A stretch of 64,000 nt of DNA from Mobula hypostoma (lineage: Eukaryota). The translations under genes and the position numbers were made by a program. The stretch covers positions 9,424,001 to 9,488,000 of the forward strand of contig NC_086108.1 of assembly GCF_963921235.1 (NCBI RefSeq). The letters run 5' to 3'. Shown here one piece after another: positions 2,041-31,698 of the stretch (the first letter of the stretch is position 1; the number at the start of each line of letters is the position of its first letter). The notes beneath the pieces are model-generated. The model had not been told where the DNA came from. It saw only the letters and a program-made list of their open reading frames with translations, and searched no databases.

Positions 2041-3932
2041 TCACTTCAGCGACTCGATGTAATCGAAGTTCTGGTGCAAGAAGATGATCCGGTTGATGTC
2101 CTCGGGAGACAGTGCCGCCCCAGTGTCGTCCGGCAGCCGGCCGGAGGTGAGGAACGGCCGGCCGGCAGTGGCGGGCACGGCCAGGTAGCGACGGGCCAGG
2201 CTGGCGAGGGCGGGGAAGCGGTGTGCGTTGTCCCGCCACCACTGGAACGGGTCCGTGTGGCGCTTGCGGAGGGGCTCGGCCAGATAGCTCTCCATCTGCT
2301 GGTGGAGCTCCGGAAGGCGGTCCACCGGGTCCTCGCCAAACAGGAGATCGTACTCGCTGGGCTTGGGCTCGGCCGAGGCCCGCTCGCCCTCCGAGGAGGT
2401 GCTGGGCGAGCGCGGCTCCGGGAGCGCGGCGGAGAGCAGCGCCTTCACCCGCCGCTGCACCTGCTCCCGGGACCGGGCGCTCAGGAAGCGCAGGTCTTTG
2501 AAGCGGGGGTCCAGGAAGGAGGCGAGGACGGCGGGGTTGTCCGGCAGCTCCTCGTCACGCTGCAGGCGCCAGCGTTGGCTGATCTCAGAGCGGATCCGGG
2601 CGCAGACGGCGCCGCAGGCCGAGCAGGCCGAGCTGGCCTCGACCGGCTGCTGCCCGAGGGCGGCCAACACCCCGTGCAAGCAAGGCAGCAGGGAGGAGAC
2701 GGAGGCGTTCTGCGGCTCGCCCAGGAAAGACAGGGCCACCTTGAGGGGCTTCAGAATGGGCAGCAGGTTGCGCAGAAGCTCCCACTGGGCATCGGAGAGG
2801 TCGGGCACCGTTGGCTCCCCACCCTCCCACTCCTCCTCCTGTTGCAGAGCATCCCTGAGCGCCCAGCGTGTGTCCAGCAGCCGCCGGCACATGTCGAAGG
2901 TGGTGTCCCAGTGGCACGGGGTGTCGAGCAGCAGGGCTGGGCCCGGGGCCTCGGCGCTGCCCTCGGCCAGCCGGTCGTCGAGGCGGGCAGTGGCCCGCGG
3001 GTCTTGTTGGAAGTGAGCGACGAGGCGGCGGGCCGACAGCAGGGCGTCCTGCACCGCCTCCGTCCGCAGCCCCTGCTTGATGCACTGCTGCAGCGTGCGG
3101 GCGGCGCAGGAGAGGTGCGGGCAGTTGTCGGCCGGCCGCTCCCCGGCCCCGCCGCCGTCGCGCACCACGCAGCTCACCGCCTGCCACGGCACGCCCAGGT
3201 CGCCGAGGGCCGAGCGCAGCAGCTCCCGGCTGCCCGTGGCCGCGGGCCCGGTGCTCAGCACGCAGCGCGCCGGCCTCCAGCGGCCGTCGATGAAGTGCGC
3301 CGACACGGTCAGGTAGGCCCGCCGAGCCGGGGTGCTCCAGCCGTGCGTGGAAAGGGCCATGCAGGGCACGGCGCGAAGCTGGTGGGCCAGCCGCAGCTTG
3401 CACAGCGTGTACCTGTGGCGCAGGTGAGCGGCCAGCTGCGTCCCCGACGGCAGCCGGTAGTTGGGCTCCAGGAAGCCCAGCAGCCGCCTGAAGCCCTGGT
3501 CGGTGACCAGCGAGAGCGGCTGCAGGTCCCGGAACACCATCCCGGTGATCAGGTCGTCGATCGCCTCGTCCCGCTTCTCGACCGCCATCTCCGCGCCGTG
3601 AACCGCCATCTTCTTCAGTTCGGGCTCCTGGCCCATGGACTCCGAGGACGAGGAGCCCTCGTCGGGGAAGGGGCGCCCCTCCGCGTCGCCGAGGTGGTGC
3701 TTGCGCCGCAGGTGCTCCCGCAGGCTGGCCGTGCTGTTGTGGTAACAGAGCTGCTTGCGGCACAGGCTGCACTCCACGCAGCGCTCGTTCAGCCTCCGGA
3801 AGAAATCCCAGGCCTGCGCCCAGTCCTGGCCGCCGCCGCCCGCGGGCAATGCCCGCTTCGTCTTCAGCTCTGCCGCCCTGCGCCTTCCGCCACTGCCCAG
3901 CGGGTAGGAGCGCAGCGCCATGGAAATATCGT
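2041..3932 (-). CDS. Last and largest coding exon of a ZBED1-like hAT transposase-derived gene (BED finger 2, hAT RNase H-like core, C-terminal hAT dimerisation domain)
   Basis: Uninterrupted frame to TGA at 2043-2041. BED motif AWDFF..CSLC..YHNSTASLREHLRRKH; hAT segments DLQPLSLV..GF, AYLTVSAHFID, LASFLDPRFK, WW..RFPALASLARRYLAVPAT, LSPEDINRIIFLHQN. Acceptor ccgtctccggcag|ACGAT at 3933/3932, with a CTAAC branch point (~3974-3970) and a long pyrimidine tract. The first ~89 aa of the tracked 719-aa ORF are translated intron. Confidence 0.92.
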
Positions 3933-6320: not shown

Positions 6321-6456
6321 CTTCGATTACTGGAGGGTAGGTGTCACCATCTCCCAGGGCGGAGTGCCATTCCAGTTCCTCACCTTCCTCGAGCTGGGCT
6401 GCACACTCCCGCAACATGTTGGAAATCCTCTTACTGCTCTGCGAGGTGTGGGATGC
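6321..6456 (-). CDS. Internal linker exon of the ZBED-like gene (ASHTSQSSKRISNMLRECAAQLEEGEELEWHSALGDGDTYPPVIE)
   Basis: Acceptor ttctttcgttcattctccccag|GCA and donor GAAG|gtacag (alternative GAAG|gtgagg ending at 6384). The 136-nt exon is open and runs phase 0 to phase 1, exactly bridging the phase-0 donor at 10941 and the phase-1 acceptor at 3932. Confidence 0.7.
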
Positions 6457-8420: not shown

Positions 8421-9458
8421 TCTGTCTTCGCTACATATTTGAGTGTTTCTAAGAACATTTTAAAAGTTTCTATTGTACCTACCTCCACCGCCATGCCTGG
8501 TATCTACAGTACCACTGTGTAAAAAAAATTTTGTGCATCTCCCTCTCTCACCTTAAATGCATGGTCATAGGGGACTACAGTGCAGAAACAGGCCCTTTGG
8601 CCCATCTAGATCATGCGGCACTGGTTTTCTATCTACCCGCTCTGCACCATAGCCTCCCATACCCCTCCTATCCATGACCCTGACTAAACTTCTCTTAAAT
8701 GTTGCAATCAAACCCGTATCCCACCACTTCCGCTGGCAGCTCATTCCACACTCACACCACCCTCTGAGCGAAGACATTCCCCTCATGTTCCCCTTACGTA
8801 TTTCACCTTTCACCCTGAACCTATGACCTCTGTATAAGGGGGAAAGCCTGCAAGCATCTACCCTGTTACAGAATCCTGAGAAAAAAATACTGTCTACTCG
8901 ATATATCAACGTCTCTAATAATCTTATGAACTTCTATCAGGTCTCCTCTCAACCCTGGCTCTCCAGAGAAGACCCACAAATTTGTCCAACCTCATACCCT
9001 CTAATCCAGGCAGCATCCTGGTAAACCTCATCTGAACCCTCTCTGAGGCCTCCACACTTTTCCTGTACTGGGGTGACCAGAACTGAATGCAATACTCCAG
9101 GTATTGGGTGATGGACAGGGTGGAGATACGTCTCTACTAAAGGAGGTGTAAGGCGCTCCTTCCTTCCACTAGCTTGCAGGTCACCTGTCTTGTAAAGACA
9201 CTACCCAGATGAAGGCAATGGAAAACCACTTCTGTGGAAAAATTTGCCAAGAAGCATGACGACCACGATCATACGACACGGCTTGTAATGATGATGTCAC
9301 CTGGCATGGCCCATAAAGATGATGATGATGCGTAAACAAAGACAGACAAACAACCAGTGTGTAAAAGAAGGCAAATAAGAAATAAGCAAATAATACTGAG
9401 AACGTGAGTTGTGGAATCCTCGTAAAATGAGTCTCTACGTTGTAGAATCAGTTCAGTG

Positions 9459-10217
9459 TTGTGGGGAGTGAAGTTATCCACACTGGTTCAGGAGCCTGAT
9501 GGTTGTGGGGTGATAACTGTTCCTGAACCTGGTGGTGTGGGACCTGAGGCTCATTGTGGTGAGTGAAGTTATCCACACTGGTTCAGGAGCCTGATGGTTG
9601 AGGGGTAATAACTGTTCCTGAACCCGGTGGTGTGGGACCTGAGGCTCATTGTGGTGAGTGAAGTTATCCACACTGGTTCAGGAGCCTGATGGTTGTGGGG
9701 TAATAACTGTTCCTGAACCTGGTGGTGTGGGACCTGAGGCTCATTGTGGTGAGTGAAGTTATCCACACTGGTTCAGGAGCCTGATGGTTGTGGGGTAATA
9801 ACTGTTCCTGAACCTGGTGGTGTGGGACCTGAGGCTCACTGTGCTGAGTGAAGTTATCCACACTGGTTCAGGAGCCTGACGGTTGTGGGGTAATAACTGT
9901 TCCTGAACCTGGTGGTGTGGGACCTGAGGCTCATTGTGGTGACTGAAGTTATCCACACTGGTTCAGGAGTCTGATGGTTGTGGGGTAATAACTGTTCCTG
10001 AACCTGGTGGTGTGGGACCTGAGGCTCATTGTGGGGAGTGAAGTTATCCACACTGGTTCAGGAGCCTGACGGTTGTGGGGTAATAACTGTTCCTGAACCT
10101 GGTGGTGTGGGACCTGAGGCTCATTGTGGTGAGTGAAGTTATCCACACTGGTTCAGGAGCCTGATGGTTGTGGGGTAATAACTGTTCCTGAACCTGGTGG
10201 TGTGGGACCTGAGGCTC
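9459..10217. repeat. 95-bp tandem repeat, 8 copies, derived from a LINE 3' coding end
   Basis: Unit 'gtgaagttatccacactggttcaggagcctgatggttgtggggtaataactgttcctgaacctggtggtgtgggacctgaggctcattgtggtga' starts at 9468, 9563, 9658, 9753, 9848, 9943, 10038 and 10133. Copies are near-identical and have no spacers. Confidence 0.95.
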
Positions 10218-10637
10218 CTGTACCTTTTTCCTGAGGGCAGCTGTGAGAAGAGAGCATGTCCTGGGTGGTGGGGGTCCCTGATGATGGATACTACTTTCTT
10301 GTGGCAGCACTCTGATCATTAAGGACCCCCATCATAGGAAACTAAGTACCCCCTCCTTTTCTGATATCAGGCCATGAGGTGCCCAGACCAGTTACATACA
10401 TCCAGTTCTTTAGCCAGGGAGTGGTGAATCTGTGGAATTCATTGCTGCAGGTGGCTGTGGAGGCAAAGTCTTTATGTATATTTAAGGCAGAGGATGATAG
10501 ATTCTTGATTGATCAGGGCATGAAGGGACTCAGGGAGAAGGCAGGAGACTGGGGCTGAGAGGGATAAAGGATCAGCGGTGATGGAATGGCAAAGCAGGCT
10601 CGATGGGCCAAACGGCCTAATTCCTCTCCTATGTCTT

Positions 10638-10942
10638 ATGATCCACAGTTCACATGTTTATATTTGGGGTAAAGACTCACAGTACACGTATGATGCACTG
10701 TACACATGTTTATATTTGGAATAAAGACTCAACAGTACACGTATGATCCACAGTTCACATGTTTATATTTGGGGTAAAGACTCACAGTACACGTATGATC
10801 CACTGTACACATGTTTATATTTGGAATAAAGACTCAACAGTACACGTATGATCCACAGTTCACGTGTTTATATTTGGAATAAAGACTCACAGTACACGTA
10901 TGATGCACAGTTCACATTTATACTTGGAATAAAGACTCACAG
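10638..10942. repeat. 52/53-bp minisatellite, ~5.8 copies, alternating variants
   Basis: Unit atgatccacagttcacatgtttatatttgg(gg/aa)taaagactca(a)cagtacacgt; the last copy abuts the BED exon donor. Confidence 0.9.
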
Positions 10943-11201
10943 AGCTATCAATGCCAATAAGTTCAGTGATCTTCGGACACCTCTCCTTCACACTGACAGT
11001 CTTCTCTGCCGTGCTGTGGGCGGCGGGCAGGTCACCACGATCGCTCTCCTCTGTGAAGTGGATGTGATGATTCCGTTGCAGGTGTAACCGCAGCACTGTG
11101 CTGCTGCCGGAACACACCAGCTGGGCGCCACACACGTTGCAGATGATGGCTTTGTCGTCCCTCCGCGTCACGTACTTCCAGACCTCGCCGACGCGGGGCA
11201 T
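10941..11201 (-). CDS. First coding exon of the ZBED-like gene (BED zinc finger 1)
   Basis: gagccATG Kozak context. MPRVGEVWKYVTRRDDKAIICNVCGAQLVCSGSSTVLRLHLQRNHH fits the BED W..C-x2-C..H-x3-4-H pattern. Donor TCT|gtgagt after 87 codons; candidate upstream acceptor ccctctttcag at ~11234. Confidence 0.8.
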
Positions 11202-12699
11202 GGCTCTCCACCTGTGACTCCGCGGTCACGTCACTGAAAGAGGGTGATGACATCACACTCCCGCAAATGCCCGACCGCAGCACAGACCTCCAGCCAGCAC
11301 CTCGCCTCAGCATTCCCACATTCCCTCCATCCACCTCCCTCTTTCTGGAGGCCATCTTGGAGCTAGAGGCCTGTGTAAGCGCACGTGGGTGGGATGGAGG
11401 GACAGGGTTTTCTTTGTGCTTGTTGTGTTCTGCCGAGCATTGTGGCATGCTGTGTTGGCGCTGGAACGTGTGGCGACACTTGTGGGCTGCCCCCAGCCTG
11501 TTCTTGCCTGTGTTGGCTGTGAACACAAACGACGCACTTCACAGCAACACCCACAAAATGCTGGAGGGACTCAACAGGTCAGGCAGCATCCGTGGAAAAG
11601 AGTAAACAGGCTGAGACCCTTCAGTGGGGCTGGCAAGGAAGGGGGAAGATGCCAGAATAAAAAGCTGCAGGGAAGGAGAAGATGAAGCCATGATAGGCAA
11701 AGGGCTGGAAGAGGAAGAATCTGATGGAAGAGATTGGACCATAGGAGGAAGGGACCCAGGGGGAAGTAAGAGGCAGGTGAGAAGAGATAAGAGGTCAGAG
11801 TGGGGAATAGGAGAGGGGGGAGAATTTGTTCAGCGGAAGGAGAAAACGATGTTCATGCCATCAGGTTGGAGGCTACCCACATGGAATACAAGGTGTTGCC
11901 CCTTCACCCTGAGGGTGGCCTCATTATATCACTCTATGTTCCGATGCACGTGTGATAAATAAATGAATCTGAACCTTTCTTTTGATCTGGCTTAGGTCAG
12001 TCTTTTTATCCGTCCTACTTGATCATTCCCTGGACCTCTCAAACTCTCATCGTCTTCCCACTACCCTCATCCCTCCTCCACTAACCCTCCATTTCTCCCT
12101 ATTCCCCTCAGCTGCTTACTTCATTGTACACCCCTCATTCCATCCCCCTTTACCTCCCACCACTCCATCTCTCTGTTCTCCTTGTTACCTTTCACTGTTC
12201 CATTCCCTCGTTTTTATCCATCTTTCTCATTCCCCTCATCCACACTTTTCAGTCCACCCCCCCCCCCCAATTAGGGTGCATTCTGGAGATATAGAATATA
12301 GCAAATAGTAATTTTCACAGCAACCAGTCTCAGATCTGAATGTGGATTGTAGATTGAATTTAAAATGCAGCTCGGGAAACACCCAAATGACCTGACATGT
12401 CCATATTTGCATGAATGCAGCTCAGAGACAACAATAATTAACTTTTCATTTTGGGTGTGTTGGTGTGAAGATCTAGGTACATATTTGAAAAGTTACATGT
12501 AACTTATGAATACTGTACAGTGTAGCTATAGAAATTTACCTGTTACCTTTGTCCTTTAACATATAAAAATGTGCTGTGTTGTTGGGTCTGGGAGTCTCTC
12601 GAGTGCCTCCAAAGGCTGTCAGCTTGTGTGTGTGTGATGAATAAAGGTTTTTAAATCTACCAGCTACATCTCTCCAGTGACTTCATTCATGGTCACAAC

Positions 12700-13555
12700 A
12701 ATCCTCACCCTCATGGCTTCCATTCCTCCTCCACTCCAATTACCCCATTTCTCAAATCCTCAAACTTATTCCCTTCCACTTCCCCTCTCATTCCCTTCCT
12801 CCATCCCTTTCCCTGTCCCACCCATTCCCTCCCAATCTTCCCCCTTTCATTCTTTATTCCCTTTATCCACATTTCTCATTTTCCAACTCCCTCCACCCTT
12901 ATTCTCTATCCTCTCATGATCCTCCTTTCATTCCCTCCATCCTTCCTCCTCTTTCCCTCAACCCTCCCTCCTTCTGACCTGTTAGTCATTTCCTCCATCC
13001 ATCGCCCACTCCCACCCTGTCGCTCATTCCTCCCTCCCTTCCTCATTCCCTCCATCCCTCCGTCATTCATACCCTTTATCCACATTTGCAACTCGCTCCA
13101 CCCTTGTTCTCTATCCTTTCATGGTGCTCCTTGTTCATTCTCTCCATCCTCCCTCCCCTCTTTCCCTCAATCCTCCCACTTTCCTACCTGTTACTCATTC
13201 CCTCCCTCCTTTACTCACCCCCACCCTCCATTACCCATCCACTCCATCACTCATTCTCACCCTCCTTCACTCATCCCTTCCCTCCCTCCATCACTCACAC
13301 ATTCCCTCTTTCCCTTCCTCCCTCCCACAGTCACTTTGCATCAGTCACCCCCCGCTGTCACTCAATCCCTCCTTCCCTCCCTCACTCATCCCCTCCCTCA
13401 CGCATTCCTTCCTTCCCTCCGTCACTCATTCCCTCCCTCCCTCCTACAGTCACTTTCTGTCAGTCATCCCCTCCCAGTTATGGATTCACTCACTCACTCA
13501 TCTCCTCCCTCCCACAGTCACTCATTCATTCCCTCCATCACTAACCCATTCCCCA
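12700..13555. repeat. Pyrimidine-rich low-complexity tract (CCCT/CATT/CACT motifs)
   Basis: Strongly C/T-biased plus strand over ~850 bp; a similar tract lies at ~12020-12270. Confidence 0.85.
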
Positions 13556-14100
13556 GATTGCGGGGGTGGGCGGTCCTACCTACATCGCGGTCCGGGAGCC
13601 TGCGCTGCGGCCGCCGGTCAGTGGTCGCCACTCTGACCACAGGGCCGGGCGGGGGGAGCGGGAGGCCCGCCGAGACTGAAGATTCAGATCCCTGCGCCCC
13701 GCCCGCGCTCAGCGGGATCGCGTTTCGAAAACGCGGCCGGCCGCCCCGCCTCTTGTCCGCCCGCCGCCGCCGTCCACCTCCTCTCCGTCGCCATCGCAAC
13801 GCGGCCTAGTCCTGCTTCGAGCCCGACTTCAGTCGGAAAGAGCCTCGGGGTCGATTAGCGGTTGGTCTCCCTGGGTGATAACGGAGGGGAATTTTATCGT
13901 GGGCCGGTAGTCGCGGGATGTGGGAGGAGGTTGGGGTCGGGGCTTCAGTTTGCTCCGACAGGCTGGTGAGGACGGTCGATCATGAAGTGTCGGTGCCGGC
14001 AGTGGAGCAGCGGAGACTGGGACTGGGGTTGGGGTGTGGGAATTCGGTGCGGAATGGGTTTGAGGGAGCTTGTGGACGGGGACCTCAGGTGAGGAATGGG
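13555..14100. promoter_or_regulatory. CpG island; candidate bidirectional promoter for the ZBED-like gene (minus) and MRPS12 (plus)
   Basis: Dense CpG with several GC boxes (GGGCGG/CCGCCC near 13568, 13647, 13699, 13741, 13757). The plus strand is C-rich to the left of ~13810 and G-rich to the right. Candidate first-exon donors: minus TAG|gtagga at ~13579; plus CTG|gtgagg at ~13966 and CAG|gtgagg at ~14089. Confidence 0.75.
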
Positions 14101-14249
14101 GATGATTGATTCTGGCGTTTAAATTCGTTCCGAAGTACGGAAAGAGGCTCAACAAGCTACGTTCCCCGGCAATGCTCCCCAGCTCTTCCTGTGCTGCATT
14201 GACTGCCGCATTGGTGCTGCTTCACGGACCCAGCCGTGCTCGTTGTCTT

Positions 14250-15545
14250 CGTCAGCTTTGTCTCCAATTTCCCACCCTGTCCTTAAATTCACTTGGTCCA
14301 TTTCTGACCACCCTCTCCCCTTTCATCGTCTCCAATCTCTGGAGACAAACTGGCCACCGATATCTTTTATAAACCTGATTGCCATGGTTATCTTGATTAT
14401 ACTTCTTCCCACCCTGTCTCCTGTAAGAATGCTCAATCCCTTTGTCTCTGCTGCACCTGTTCCCACGTTGAGGATTTCCTTTCCAGGACATCAGAGATGT
14501 CCTCCTCCTTCAAAGAACAGAGTTTCCATTCCTTCGCTATTGATTCTGCCCTCATCCGCATCTCTTCCATTTTCTGGACATCCGCACTCACCTCATTCTC
14601 CTGACACCATAACAAGGAGAGAGTTTCTCTTGTTCATCTTCCTACCACCCAATGAGTCTCTGTATCCAACAAATCAGCCTCCACATCATCAGCCATCTCC
14701 TAAGGGATCCTGCCACCAAACATGTCTCTATCTCCTTCCCTCTCTCCGCTTTCTACAGGGATCGCACCCTCTGTGATTCCCTTGTCCATCCCCACTAATC
14801 TCCCAGCCAGTGACCTAAGTGCCACACCTGCCCGTTCACCTCCTCTTTTACCCCTCATTCAGGGCTCCAAACGGTCCTTCCGGGTGAGGCAACACTTCAC
14901 CTGTGAATTTGCAGGGGTTGCCCTCTGCTCCTGATGTGGCCTGCTCTCCATTAGTGAGGCCTGTCATGAATTGGGGACCGCTTTGTCGATCACTTCTGCG
15001 CCATGCACCAAAAGCAGGATTTCCCAGTGGCTACCCATTTTAACTGCTATTCCTGTTCTCATTCCCATTCCAATGTGTCGGTCTACGGCCTCCTCTTGTG
15101 TCACAATGAGGCCACCCTCAGGGTGGAGGAGCAACACCTTGTATTCGATTTCCCCTCCCGGTCAACAAAAATTTCCTTCCTCCTGCCCTGCTATTCCCCC
15201 CACTGGCCTCTTAGCTCTTCTCATCTGCCCATCGCCTCCCCCTGAGTCCCCTCCTCTTTCCCTTTCTCCCATGGTCCTCTCTCCTCTCCTATCAGATTTC
15301 TTCCTCTCCAGACCTTTATCTTCCCCACACTCGTGTCTTCACCTATCACCTTCTAGTTAGCCTCCATCCCCTCCCCCCACCTTTTTATTCTGGCATCTTT
15401 TCCCTTCCTTTCCAGTCCTGAAGAAGGGTCTTGGCCCAAAATGTCAATTGTTTATTCTTTTCCAAAGATGCTGCCTGACCCCTAACATTTTCTGTGTATG
15501 TGTGTTGCTCTGGGTTTCCAGTATCTGCAGAATCTCTTGTGTTTA
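14250..15545 (+). mobile_element. Degenerate Penelope-like element (RT C-terminus, GIY-YIG, tail)
   Basis: Colinear with 35270-36600 (HPVLKFTWSISD; GSKRSFRVRQHFTCE). Confidence 0.8.
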
Positions 15546-15656
15546 GACACAACACTTGTTGCCTCACAGTCGTTTTGTTAAGGGTTGATAGAACAGAGGC
15601 CAGGAACACAACAGTGACAGGGGCCTACTACTTGGAAAAGAGAAAAACAAAAGAGG

Positions 15657-16310
15657 AAACACAAGGAAATCTGCAGATGCTGGAATTTCAAGCAACACAC
15701 ATAAAAATTGCTGGTGAACGCAGCAGGCCAGGCAGCATCTCTAGGAAGAGGTACAGTCGACGTTTCGGGCCGAGACCCTTCGTCAGGACTAACTGAAAGA
15801 AGAGATAGTAAGAGATTTGAAAGTGGGAGAGGCAGGGGAGATCTGAAATGATAGGAGAAGGCAGGAGGCCTGGGGGAGGGATGGAGCTAAGATCTGGAAA
15901 GTTGATTGGCAAAGGGGATATGAGAGGATCATGGGACGGACGGGAGGCCTAGGGAGAAAGAAGGGGGGAGGGGGGGAAGCCCAGAGGATGGGCAAGGAGT
16001 ATAGTGAGAGGGACAGAGGGAGAAAAAGGAGAGAGAGAGAAAAAATACATATGATAATAAAAGATAAATAAATAACGGATGGGGTACAAGGGGGAGGTGG
16101 GGCATTAATGGAAGTTAGAGAAGTCAATGTTCATGCCATCAGGTTGGAGGCTACCCAGACGGAATATAAGGTGTTGTTCCTCCAACCTGAGTGTGGCTTC
16201 ATCTTTACAGTAGAAGAGGCCGTGGATAGACGTATCAGAATGGGAATGGGGTGTGGAATTAAAATGTGTGGCCAGTGGGAGATCCTGCTTTCTCTGGCGG
16301 ACAGAGCGTA
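15657..16310 (-). mobile_element. Penelope-like element 3' fragment
   Basis: LRSVRQRKQDLPLATHFNS..RLEEQHLIFRLGSLQPDGMNIDFSNF; very similar to the copy at 44693-45290. Confidence 0.85.
15754..15791 (-). ncRNA. Minimal type I hammerhead ribozyme motif in a Penelope-like element tail
   Basis: Minus strand AGTC-CTGACGA-A-GGGT-CTCG-GCCC-GAAA-CGTC-GACT. It has both core boxes, helix II, helix I (AGUC/GACU), a palindromic ACGU helix III and a GUC cleavage triplet. Confidence 0.75.
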
Positions 16311-17523
16311 GGACAGAACAAAAGAGAGCATCTAGCATAAAACTGCTATTTTTAAACTACTGTGATAAGGAAAATTCCATTCAAATTTGTAGATAAGGGA
16401 CAACCAATAAGAAAGTACTCATTCCAATAATGCAGTACCAAGTTAACTAATGAGAAAGCACTTCTTCACTTCATGCAGAAGAAAGAAACTTCCAGAGCTT
16501 TCCAAAACTTTACTTTGTATAGCCACTATTAAAAAAAAACTTTTTAAAATGCAAGCAGAAAATTAATTGTTAAATTGCAAAACAATTAAACAGGCTAATC
16601 TAAGAATTAGACCATCAAATCAAATAGGGAGGAGGAAGTGGTGGAGGAGGATTTGGGACCTTCATTGGAACATGAATTCTCAGATTTGCTCAGTTAGCAT
16701 GTGAGTGATACTGGTGTTGAGGAGGGCAGGGAGGGAGGCTGCCGGCGAGGAGGGTGAGGGAGGGAGGCTGCCGGCGAGGAGGGTGAGGGAGGGAGGATGG
16801 TTGCTGGTGTGGAAGGTGAGCAAGGGAGGTAGGGTGGTTGTCGTCAAGGAGATCGAGAGAGGGAGGAAAACTGCTAGGAGGGAGATTAGTGGTGTGGGAT
16901 GAATGGACAAGGGAAAATTCAGAAATCGGAGATGCAAAGGTATTTGGGAGTCCTTGTGCAGGATTTCCTAAAGGCTAACTTGCAGACTGAGTTGGTGATA
17001 AGGAATCAACTGCAGTGTTAGCATTCATTTCAAGTGGACCAAAAGACAAAAGCAAGGGTTTGATGCTGAGGCTTAACAAGGTATTGGTCAAACCACACTT
17101 GGGATATTGTGAGCCATTTTGGGTCCCTGATCTGGGATGTGCTGGCATTGGAGAGGGTCCAGAAGAGGTGATCCCAGGAATGAAAGAGTTAAAGTTTGAT
17201 GGTTCTGGACCTGTACTCGCTAGAGTTTAGAAGAATGAATTGCGGGTGCGGGGGGGGGGTGGATCTCATTCAAACCTATCAATATTGAAATGCATCGATA
17301 AGGTGGATGTGGAGATGGTGTTTCCTATAGTGGGAGAGTCTAGGGCTAGAGGGCACACTACCTCACTACTTTTTTTTCCACTATTTTATATATATTAAAC
17401 CTGATTCTGATTCTGAAGCTGAACCTGAAGTCAGCAACCCACTTTGCCCACCTCTCATTTGATCTGTCCTCCCTTACTGTGCAGGACTGAAAACGTCAGG
17501 CTTCCTTGTACAGACCTAAAGAG

Positions 17524-17572
17524 ATGTTTCCTGTGGGTGCTGTTCGGACCTGGGTATCTTCGTTGTCTGCAG
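17524..17572 (+). CDS. MRPS12: MRPS12 first coding exon (start of mitochondrial presequence, MFPVGAVRTWVSSLSA+G)
   Basis: ATG at 17524, 49 coding nt, strong donor GCAG|gtgaga in phase 1, matching the phase-1 acceptor at 31262. Upstream acceptors at 17484 (cccttactgtgcag) and 17513. A short first coding exon agrees with the mammalian gene as I recall it. Confidence 0.72.
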
Positions 17573-17795
17573 GTGAGAGATTTAGTCAGGAAGTTCAGGT
17601 TCAGATTAATTTAGTTATCACACGTACATCGAGACAGACGGTGAAAAGTGATGCTTGCGTCAACGACCAACACAGCCTGAGCACGTACAGAGGGCAGCTC
17701 ACAAGTGCTGACATTTTGTTGGTTGTCGAGTTGGTTTGGGATTTTGGGGTTGGAATGTCGGATATTGCCCCAACCCTGTCTTCCTGAGAACTATC

Positions 17796-31261: not shown

Positions 31262-31698
31262 GGGCAGTGAGGTTGGCGGGTTCCTCACCAACTTCCCTCC
31301 TCCAACGGGTGCTGCCATCGCCAGGGTTGACGTCGCCCCCTGCAGCTCAGTGGCAGAATAGCCGGTGCATGGCCACCCTCCACCAGATGCACAAGGCAGG
31401 CAAACCCAAGAGGCCCCCTCCCAAGCTGGGCCCCACCTTCGGGCACCCCCAGCTCAAGGGTGTGGTACTCAAAACCATGATCCGCAAGCCCAAGAAGCCC
31501 AATTCGGCCAACCGCAAGTGCGCCCGGGTCCGGCTCAGCAACGGCAAGGAGGTGATCTGCTTCATCCCCGGAGAGGGCCACAACCTCCAGGAGCACAACA
31601 TCGTGCTGGTGGAAGGGGGGAGGACGCAGGACCTGCCCGGCGTCAAGCTCAAGATTGTGCGGGGGAAGTACGATTGTGCCCACGTGCAAAAGAAGTAG
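31262..31698 (+). CDS. MRPS12: MRPS12 main coding exon, mitochondrial ribosomal protein uS12m
   Basis: [91 protein letters not shown] carries the uS12 signature with the mitochondrial-type C-terminus. Acceptor ctgtctttccctccag|GG. Confidence 0.97.

Follow-up and report, generated by a model that had tools for sequence, protein, structure and literature searches.

The mitoribosomal protein gene MRPS12 of the ray Mobula hypostoma and the hAT transposase-derived gene zbed4l2 constitute a head-to-head pair on a single CpG island. Both genes are located in the 64-kb stretch of DNA analyzed here, which is referred to as the window throughout, and both first exons fall into the 281 bp between positions 13580 and 13860 (Table 1). 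Two features by which bidirectional gene pairs are recognized were found, i.e., divergent transcription from opposite strands, documented by GT-AG splice joints, and a CpG island that overlaps both first exons. We consider it likely that the two genes are served by a shared two-way promoter and that their pairing represents the state of one lineage in a gene-dense, reshuffled region.

Table 1. Positions of the elements of the MRPS12-zbed4l2 locus within the window.
Feature	Position	Strand	Basis and remarks
CpG island	13401..14300	.	GC 0.61, o/e 0.85; core 13580-13860 with both first exons and the likely shared promoter
GC-box hexamers (five)	13568, 13647, 13699, 13741, 13757 (13568..13762)	.	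pattern count
RFX X-box-like near-palindrome, candidate core element	13787..13800	.	two mismatches to 14-base consensus
zbed4l2 exon 1, non-coding	13580..13746	-	contigs; donors 13580/13579 and 13584/13583; 13746 is the limit of cover in X3
zbed4l2 exon 2	10941..11233	-	translation and contigs; 32 nt of 5' UTR, ATG 11201, first BED zinc finger
zbed4l2 exon 3	6321..6456	-	translation compared with annotated protein
zbed4l2 exon 4	2041..3932	-	translation, Pfam, alignment; second BED finger, hAT core, dimerisation domain, stop
MRPS12 exon 1, non-coding, short	13832..13860	+	donor 13860/13861; joints in X1, X2, X4; 5' limit is cover in X1
MRPS12 exon 2	17485..17572	+	contigs, translation; ATG 17524, 49 coding nt
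MRPS12 exon 3, coding part (uS12m)	31262..31698	+	translation

Evidence for transcription in both directions stems from contigs of four runs (X1 to X4) of eight listed, originating from two studies, that were aligned to positions 10950-17700. That the runs consist of RNA is only a guess, X1 being flagged as "probably DNA"; X1 and X3 belong to one organism (organism A) that differs from the organism of X2 and X4. In all four runs the end of the ZBED exon at 11233 is spliced to a minus-strand exon on the island. The donor of this exon is 13580/13579 in X1, X2 and X4 and the tandem donor 13584/13583 in X3; both donors are GT and both are used with the AG acceptor at 11234/11233. On the plus strand, donor 13860/13861 is joined to the MRPS12 exon at 17485 in three of the four runs (X1, X2, X4), likewise with GT-AG borders. 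A single contig that is free of differences bears both joints in X2 and X4. As its splice signals are located on opposite strands it does not represent one transcript; cover is continuous over 13580-13859 and that of zbed4l2 exon 1 merges with the MRPS12 contig. No cover exists in the intron bins on either side, 12984-13209 and 13888-14113, the latter being empty in all four runs. In organism A, cover of zbed4l2 exon 1 reaches 13722 (X1) and 13746 (X3), and MRPS12 exon 1 in X1 comprises 28 letters before the joint with the 5'-most cover at about 13832. The 5' ends of the two first exons, which are contig ends and not start sites, are accordingly at most about 85 bp apart (13746 in X3 vs. about 13832 in X1) or overlap. 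Contig depth in X1 amounts to 186 at the MRPS12 joint and to 7 for the ZBED contig, values from which we derive no ranking of the genes. Differences within zbed4l2 exon 1 in organism A (0 of 143 and 1 of 163) are fewer than elsewhere, but not significantly so (P 0.05-0.43).

These findings bear directly on a first-pass annotation of the same DNA, which had described a single CpG island with first-exon donors facing both ways. The donors 13580/13584 on the minus strand and 13860 on the plus strand are indeed seen spliced, and neither of the two outcomes named there as contrary to the prediction, i.e., ZBED transcripts starting independently at about 11.3 kb or a minus-strand exon splicing only elsewhere, appeared in the four runs. 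The interval 13555-14100, to which the annotation had assigned the promoter, needs to be narrowed: its left part holds both first exons and the likely promoter, and its right part is read as MRPS12 intron 1 because bin 13888-14113 has zero depth in each of the runs. None of the contigs is spliced at the two best-looking plus-strand donors (GT at 13966 and 14089), an absence that does not show these donors to be unused.

The extent of the island was set by sliding windows. Between 13561 and 13860 the GC content is 0.72 and the CpG o/e ratio 1.13, as compared to a CpG o/e of 0.38 for the whole window. As also described there, it is the sole CpG island between the ZBED exon with its ATG at 11201 and the MRPS12 exon at 17485; the ZBED exon itself carries a weaker one (10901-11450, o/e 0.66). 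Patterns for the CGCG element, hDRE, DRE, TATA, ETS, NRF1, ZNF143, E2F, CRE and E-box are absent from the island and the ETS/NRF-2 hexamer is absent from 13501-14200. The earlier statement that CCAAT/ATTGG does not occur in 13561-14100 is true, yet it describes a chance-level result, with 0.65 occurrences expected and 51% of 2000 shuffles equally devoid of the box, so that only the contrast with mouse, where the promoter has four such boxes, lends its absence any weight. GC-box hexamers number four in 13580-13860 vs. 1.07 expected (P 0.018). The X-box-like site is located between the two shortest observed 5' ends. Its level of match is reached by one of 3000 local shuffles; it is the single match in 64 kb, where 0.34 are expected and 28 of 100 whole-window shuffles reach one. 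The motif was picked after inspection of the sequence, and on account of this post hoc choice and of the 28 matching window shuffles we treat the site as a lead only. Literature on RFX, the X-box and bidirectional promoters yielded nothing bearing on it.

In the reading that we favor, a compact TATA-less and CCAAT-less CpG core at about 13580-13860 would start transcription both ways, the rightward output being the short non-coding MRPS12 exon 1 and the leftward output the non-coding exon that is spliced over a 2.3-kb intron to zbed4l2. The same elements, most likely the GC boxes together with the X-box-like site and not NF-Y, would drive both directions, and zbed4l2 would thereby gain a housekeeping-like expression. 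The divergent slot of MRPS12 would have had varied occupants, and zbed4l2 itself abuts another housekeeping 5' end, that of napaa, in zebrafish.

With regard to the leftward gene, the coding segments 11201-10941, 6456-6321 and 3932-2041 yield exactly the annotated 762-aa Mobula hypostoma protein (P0164, 100% identity). Pfam analysis detects PF02892 (BED) twice as well as PF05699 (hAT dimerisation), and the frame is intact. In the alignment the catalytic glutamate of Hermes finds no counterpart in zbed4l2, this third catalytic residue being missing across the family, and the first catalytic aspartate is also replaced in rays. Judged from these residues, the product is predicted to be a catalytically dead two-finger DNA-binding protein. 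The tandem donors that close exon 1 (13580-13587, minus) are 4 nt apart; the longer form of the exon, present in three runs, retains a terminal ATG-stop element that the shorter form (X3) drops, and the donors could tune translation. A 36-codon upstream ORF (13794-13684, minus) is part of the zbed4l2 5' UTR only if transcription starts to the right of 13794; we also considered that it might be left over from the first exon of a different gene, a view that no test supports. An annotated short isoform (P0004, 662 aa) begins in exon 3 and does not contain the first BED finger, and a single BED finger is also found in many tetrapod and fish zbed4l2 records. The large ZBED exon (2041-3921, minus; GC3 0.93) is itself a 2.3-kb CpG island with an o/e of 0.80. 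Tandem arrays in intron 2 at 9420-10220 and 10640-10940 have units of about 108 and 59 bases as judged by eye.

Homologues of this protein are named zbed4l2 or si:dkeyp-117b8.4, and many records carry the label "ZBED1-like". Orthologues occur in rays, sharks, the elephant shark, coelacanth, amphibians, turtles, crocodilians, squamates, birds and ray-finned fish. Among the 40 and 116 hits of two homologue searches, each with 8000 candidates scored, none was mammalian, and neither search returned an orthologue from jawless vertebrates; mammals may have lost the gene. In a quick tree that includes two outgroups, the 27 vertebrate rows are grouped as in the species tree, with values of 100 for actinopterygians and 94 for sarcopterygians; the chondrichthyan node is unsupported (19) and the batoid branches are long. 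As the tree follows the species tree, zbed4l2 is best described as a domesticated, vertically inherited single orthologue whose domestication, judged from this tree, predates the split between cartilaginous and bony vertebrates. The duck gene model P0296 fuses zbed4l2 with a cytochrome P450 domain, which suggests a CYP neighbour in birds. Our literature search, which covered mainly openly accessible papers, retrieved no paper naming zbed4l2 or, judged by title and abstract, dealing with the MRPS12-zbed4l2 pair, and none on MRPS12 plus SARS2 synteny or on partner turnover.

We considered and rejected the possibility that zbed4l2 is the orthologue of ZBED1/hDREF. The two share a BED finger and the hAT dimerisation domain, and the automatic annotation is named after ZBED1. 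On the other hand, zbed4l2 has two fingers and MRPS12 as its neighbour, whereas ZBED1 has one finger, its orthologues sit at DHRSX (PMC3606216), and it is not among the bidirectional genes listed by Kalitsis and Saffery (PMC2777200). Frog zbed1 bears a scaffold-B identifier and frog mrps12 is located on scaffold 8. The match of zbed4l2 to the ZBED1 BED domain structure is weak (E 0.009); the quick tree was computed from sequences other than human ZBED1.

Synteny was assessed by proxy: we compared the lengths of the chromosomes on record for the individual proteins and, where these had been retrieved, the accession numbers. Some lengths belong to the representative of a cluster, and the order of accessions follows position only roughly and reveals neither orientation nor strict adjacency. 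By this measure, the synteny comparison proposed in the first-pass annotation speaks for the pair in cartilaginous fish, MRPS12 and zbed4l2 residing on the same chromosome in eight of eight elasmobranchs with comparable records (Scyliorhinus torazame, with records from different assemblies, was left out), and against it in ray-finned fish (five of five: gar, bichir, two loaches, zebrafish; two scaffold-level species left out), lizards (nine of nine) and the one bird, in which the genes are on different chromosomes. The accessions are 1 apart in Hypanus and Hemitrygon, 2 in Callorhinchus and 3 in Rhincodon, i.e., 1-3 apart in four chondrichthyans including the elephant shark, and they are not consecutive in Heptranchias (11) and Heterodontus (59). 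The pairing looks old in cartilaginous fish. In a table for the little skate (PMC10115646), the id of a BED+hAT gene differs by 14 from that of Mrps12, the ids of Nova, Ahnak-like, Spint2 and Plekhg2 fall in between, and no Sars row is among the rows listed; if these ids are positional and the BED+hAT gene is zbed4l2, the pair would be broken in this species.

Among the remaining vertebrates, coelacanth has both genes on one chromosome with accessions 62 apart, hardly further than the 59 of Heterodontus, so that adjacency is possible there. The same chromosome is recorded in 15 of 15 amphibians, with 106 accessions in between for axolotl and a large distance for Bombina, and in the chromosome-level assemblies of turtles, where distances of 35-382 accessions make the genes look non-adjacent (two scaffold-level species were left out and some accessions were assigned to species by numerical closeness). 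For zebrafish, the coordinates tabulated in PMC5690287 place zbed4l2 on chromosome 5, sars2 on chromosome 15 and MRPS12 on chromosome 21. According to the same table, which does not give the strand of zbed4l2, this gene overlaps the 5' end of the minus-strand gene napaa by about 870 bp. Zebrafish sars2 is listed as overlapping si:dkey-260j18.2 by about 200 bp at chr15:14.70 Mb, a possible change of partner, and zebrafish MRPS12 at chr21:25.52 Mb is situated beside npas4b. Translocation, or retention of a copy from whole-genome duplication, may account for the MRPS12 of ray-finned fish; "S12-like" is the name given in many records from fish, sharks and coelacanth.

Positions given for Xenopus tropicalis scaffold 8 (PMC6593175) are 54,652,764-54,673,683 for sars2, 54,681,256-54,696,577 for fbxo27 and 54,696,644-54,700,517 for mrps12. 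The gap between fbxo27 and mrps12 measures 67 bp, and sars2 follows beyond fbxo27 at 23 kb from mrps12. The narrow gap suggests a head-to-head fbxo27-mrps12 pair in a table that lists no strands. Frog mrps12 is listed with fbxo27 and the pak4 side as neighbours, and the genes on either side of frog napa are gltscr1 and kptn. Xetro.H01101, an unnamed, maternally abundant gene, is found 84 bp from fancf at scaffold_8:54.44 Mb, 250 kb from mrps12. Taken together, MRPS12 has zbed4l2 as its near neighbour in the ray and SARS2 in mouse and human; in Xenopus this place is probably taken by fbxo27, and zebrafish differs again. The human genes FBXO17 and FBXO27 are presumably situated on the other side of MRPS12. 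The supplements of Lovell 2014 contain no rows for SARS2, MRPS12 or FBXO17. With fbxo27 as a third neighbour in the frog, SARS2 cannot be assumed to be the ancestral partner of MRPS12, and its pairing with MRPS12 looks derived. The first-pass annotation's wording that zbed4l2 is present "instead of SARS2" is therefore correct in relation to mammals, but need not apply as an ancestral contrast.

In mouse and human, Mrps12 shares a bidirectional promoter with Sars2, the conservation of which Zanotto et al. claim "at least amongst mammals" (PMC1802594). Like that of the ray, the mammalian promoter described there is a TATA-less CpG island with starts less than 200 bp apart, and the mammalian Mrps12 exon 1 is similar to ray exon 1 in being short and non-coding, its donor following the start after about 40 nt. 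The ray differs by having zbed4l2 and not SARS2 as partner, no CCAAT box vs. four in mouse, no ETS/NRF-2 hexamer, and an intron 1 of 3.6 kb vs. 211-277 nt (PMC1802594). The ray promoter is thus unlike the NF-Y-driven type, having no CCAAT array in 13561-14100 and, with splicing to ZBED in all four runs and no SerRS match in a low-power search of the window, no SARS2 seen as divergent partner. A tamed transposase on a bidirectional CpG promoter is a published pattern, of which the ray pair is a further example. Among the transposon-derived genes surveyed by Kalitsis and Saffery, 23 of 63 in human and 12 of 45 in mouse are members of bidirectional CpG pairs vs. about 10% genome-wide, including TIGD1-EIF4E2 and, in their table, the hAT-derived EPM2AIP1-MLH1 (PMC2777200). 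These pairs and the ray locus have in common that a domesticated gene of DNA-transposon origin runs antisense to a housekeeping gene and that both first exons lie on one CpG island, and the ray layout is that of their model D(iii), in which a non-coding upstream exon is spliced to the element. In contrast to the mammalian pairs, the ray gene, a cartilaginous-fish case, is of the Ac type, has several exons and two fingers and is much older, and the insertion can be dated to the promoter for TIGD1 but not for zbed4l2. The ray pair reveals no new mechanism; by direct splice evidence it extends the mammal-based model of transposon domestication to cartilaginous fish, and it indicates that SARS2-MRPS12, a textbook pair of "functionally related" genes, is not the general vertebrate state. 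In a related context, Yang et al. state that many human bidirectional promoters arose after the split from fish (PMC2423431).

How the pair came into being can be read in different ways. Chances are about even that it was assembled in chondrichthyans after zbed4l2 had been domesticated. That it is ancestral instead, a hAT element having landed by the MRPS12 promoter in the jawed-vertebrate ancestor, taken over the antisense exon and become domesticated in this manner before bony vertebrates lost the pair, is possible though rather doubtful. Such a capture is consistent with the new upstream exon and intron of model D(iii), with a pair that appears to reach the elephant shark (accessions 2 apart), and with the fact that the two genes share a chromosome in coelacanth, in 15 of 15 amphibians and in several turtles, which implies that they were at least linked in the ancestor. 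It is weakened by the fact that no bony vertebrate among those placed was found with an adjacent pair, frog mrps12 lying beside the fbxo27/pak4 side, turtle genes being 35-382 accessions apart and zebrafish zbed4l2 occupying the napaa 5' end; moreover, the homologue searches, having returned no jawless orthologue, provide no outgroup for the direction of change. The claim that zbed4l2 captured the MRPS12 promoter consequently holds for the head-to-head arrangement with a transposase-derived gene, and capture would be a possible but rather doubtful route to domestication, the gene having been a domesticated single orthologue before the split and not lying beside MRPS12 in the placed bony vertebrates. 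Displacement of SARS2, with SARS2 as ancestral partner, zbed4l2 coming between the two and SARS2 located just left of the window, strikes us as unlikely. Only 2 kb of the window lie to the left of zbed4l2, and the listed distance of 23 kb with one gene in between in X. tropicalis makes the linkage of sars2 and mrps12 at least as old as tetrapods. However, in each of the four runs the path from exon 1 to the ZBED exon shows no branch in the contigs (rare forms being dropped), the documentation of direct pairing in PMC1802594 does not extend beyond mammals, and zebrafish sars2 is listed on another chromosome, where it overlaps a different gene. As the first-pass annotation had noted, no SARS2 exon was found in the window, though by a search of low power that had no vertebrate positive control: E. 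coli SerRS against six frames gave a best E of 2.2, and seven short SerRS motifs, only two of which match E. coli SerRS itself, gave no hits.

A shared promoter also has to be weighed against two independent promoters that are merely close in a gene-dense region and have neither shared elements nor co-regulation. About 10% of human genes are reported in such pairs (PMC2777200), and the changes of partner between lineages indicate that the pairing is dispensable elsewhere, but at most 85 bp between the 5'-most cover in organism A and the continuous cover in X2 and X4 leave little room for two separate units, and we regard this reading as quite improbable. Still much less probable is feedback, i.e., binding of the ZBED product to the shared promoter and regulation of MRPS12 in the manner of ZBED1/hDREF, as the first-pass annotation had speculated. 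ZBED1 is described as a regulator of ribosomal protein genes (PMC3606216), zbed4l2 possesses two intact BED fingers, and the island contains a short palindrome at 13723-13730. Nevertheless, the gene is zbed4l2 and not ZBED1, given the DHRSX locus of the latter and the location of frog zbed1 off the scaffold of mrps12; hDRE-like sequences with up to one mismatch number zero in the island and seven elsewhere in the window vs. 6.5 expected, and 8-bp palindromes are at chance level (three vs. 2.4 expected). Returning to the shared two-way promoter, we tentatively propose, without rating it as probable, that the MRPS12 promoter is an ancient two-way socket whose other side was occupied in succession, by a hAT gene in cartilaginous fish and by FBXO27 in frogs, with SARS2 as a late arrival. 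The socket of cartilaginous fish would possibly be the site of the first domestication of zbed4l2, the SARS2 pair and the NF-Y/CCAAT array would be derived in mammals, and zbed4l2 would have survived by moving from one bidirectional housekeeping promoter, that of MRPS12, to another, that of NAPA in zebrafish. The locus thereby offers a natural comparison for asking whether proximity came before co-regulation and if SARS2 brought the CCAAT array with it.

MRPS12 itself is encoded by 17524-17572 plus 31262-31698 and comprises 161 aa. A metagenome search with MRPS12 returned 80 loci of 47-76% identity, none of them vertebrate-looking. In the part of the window from 32000 to 64000, no host-gene exon was recognized among ORFs of at least 100 aa and GC-rich segments, and this part consists mostly of LINE-like fragments.
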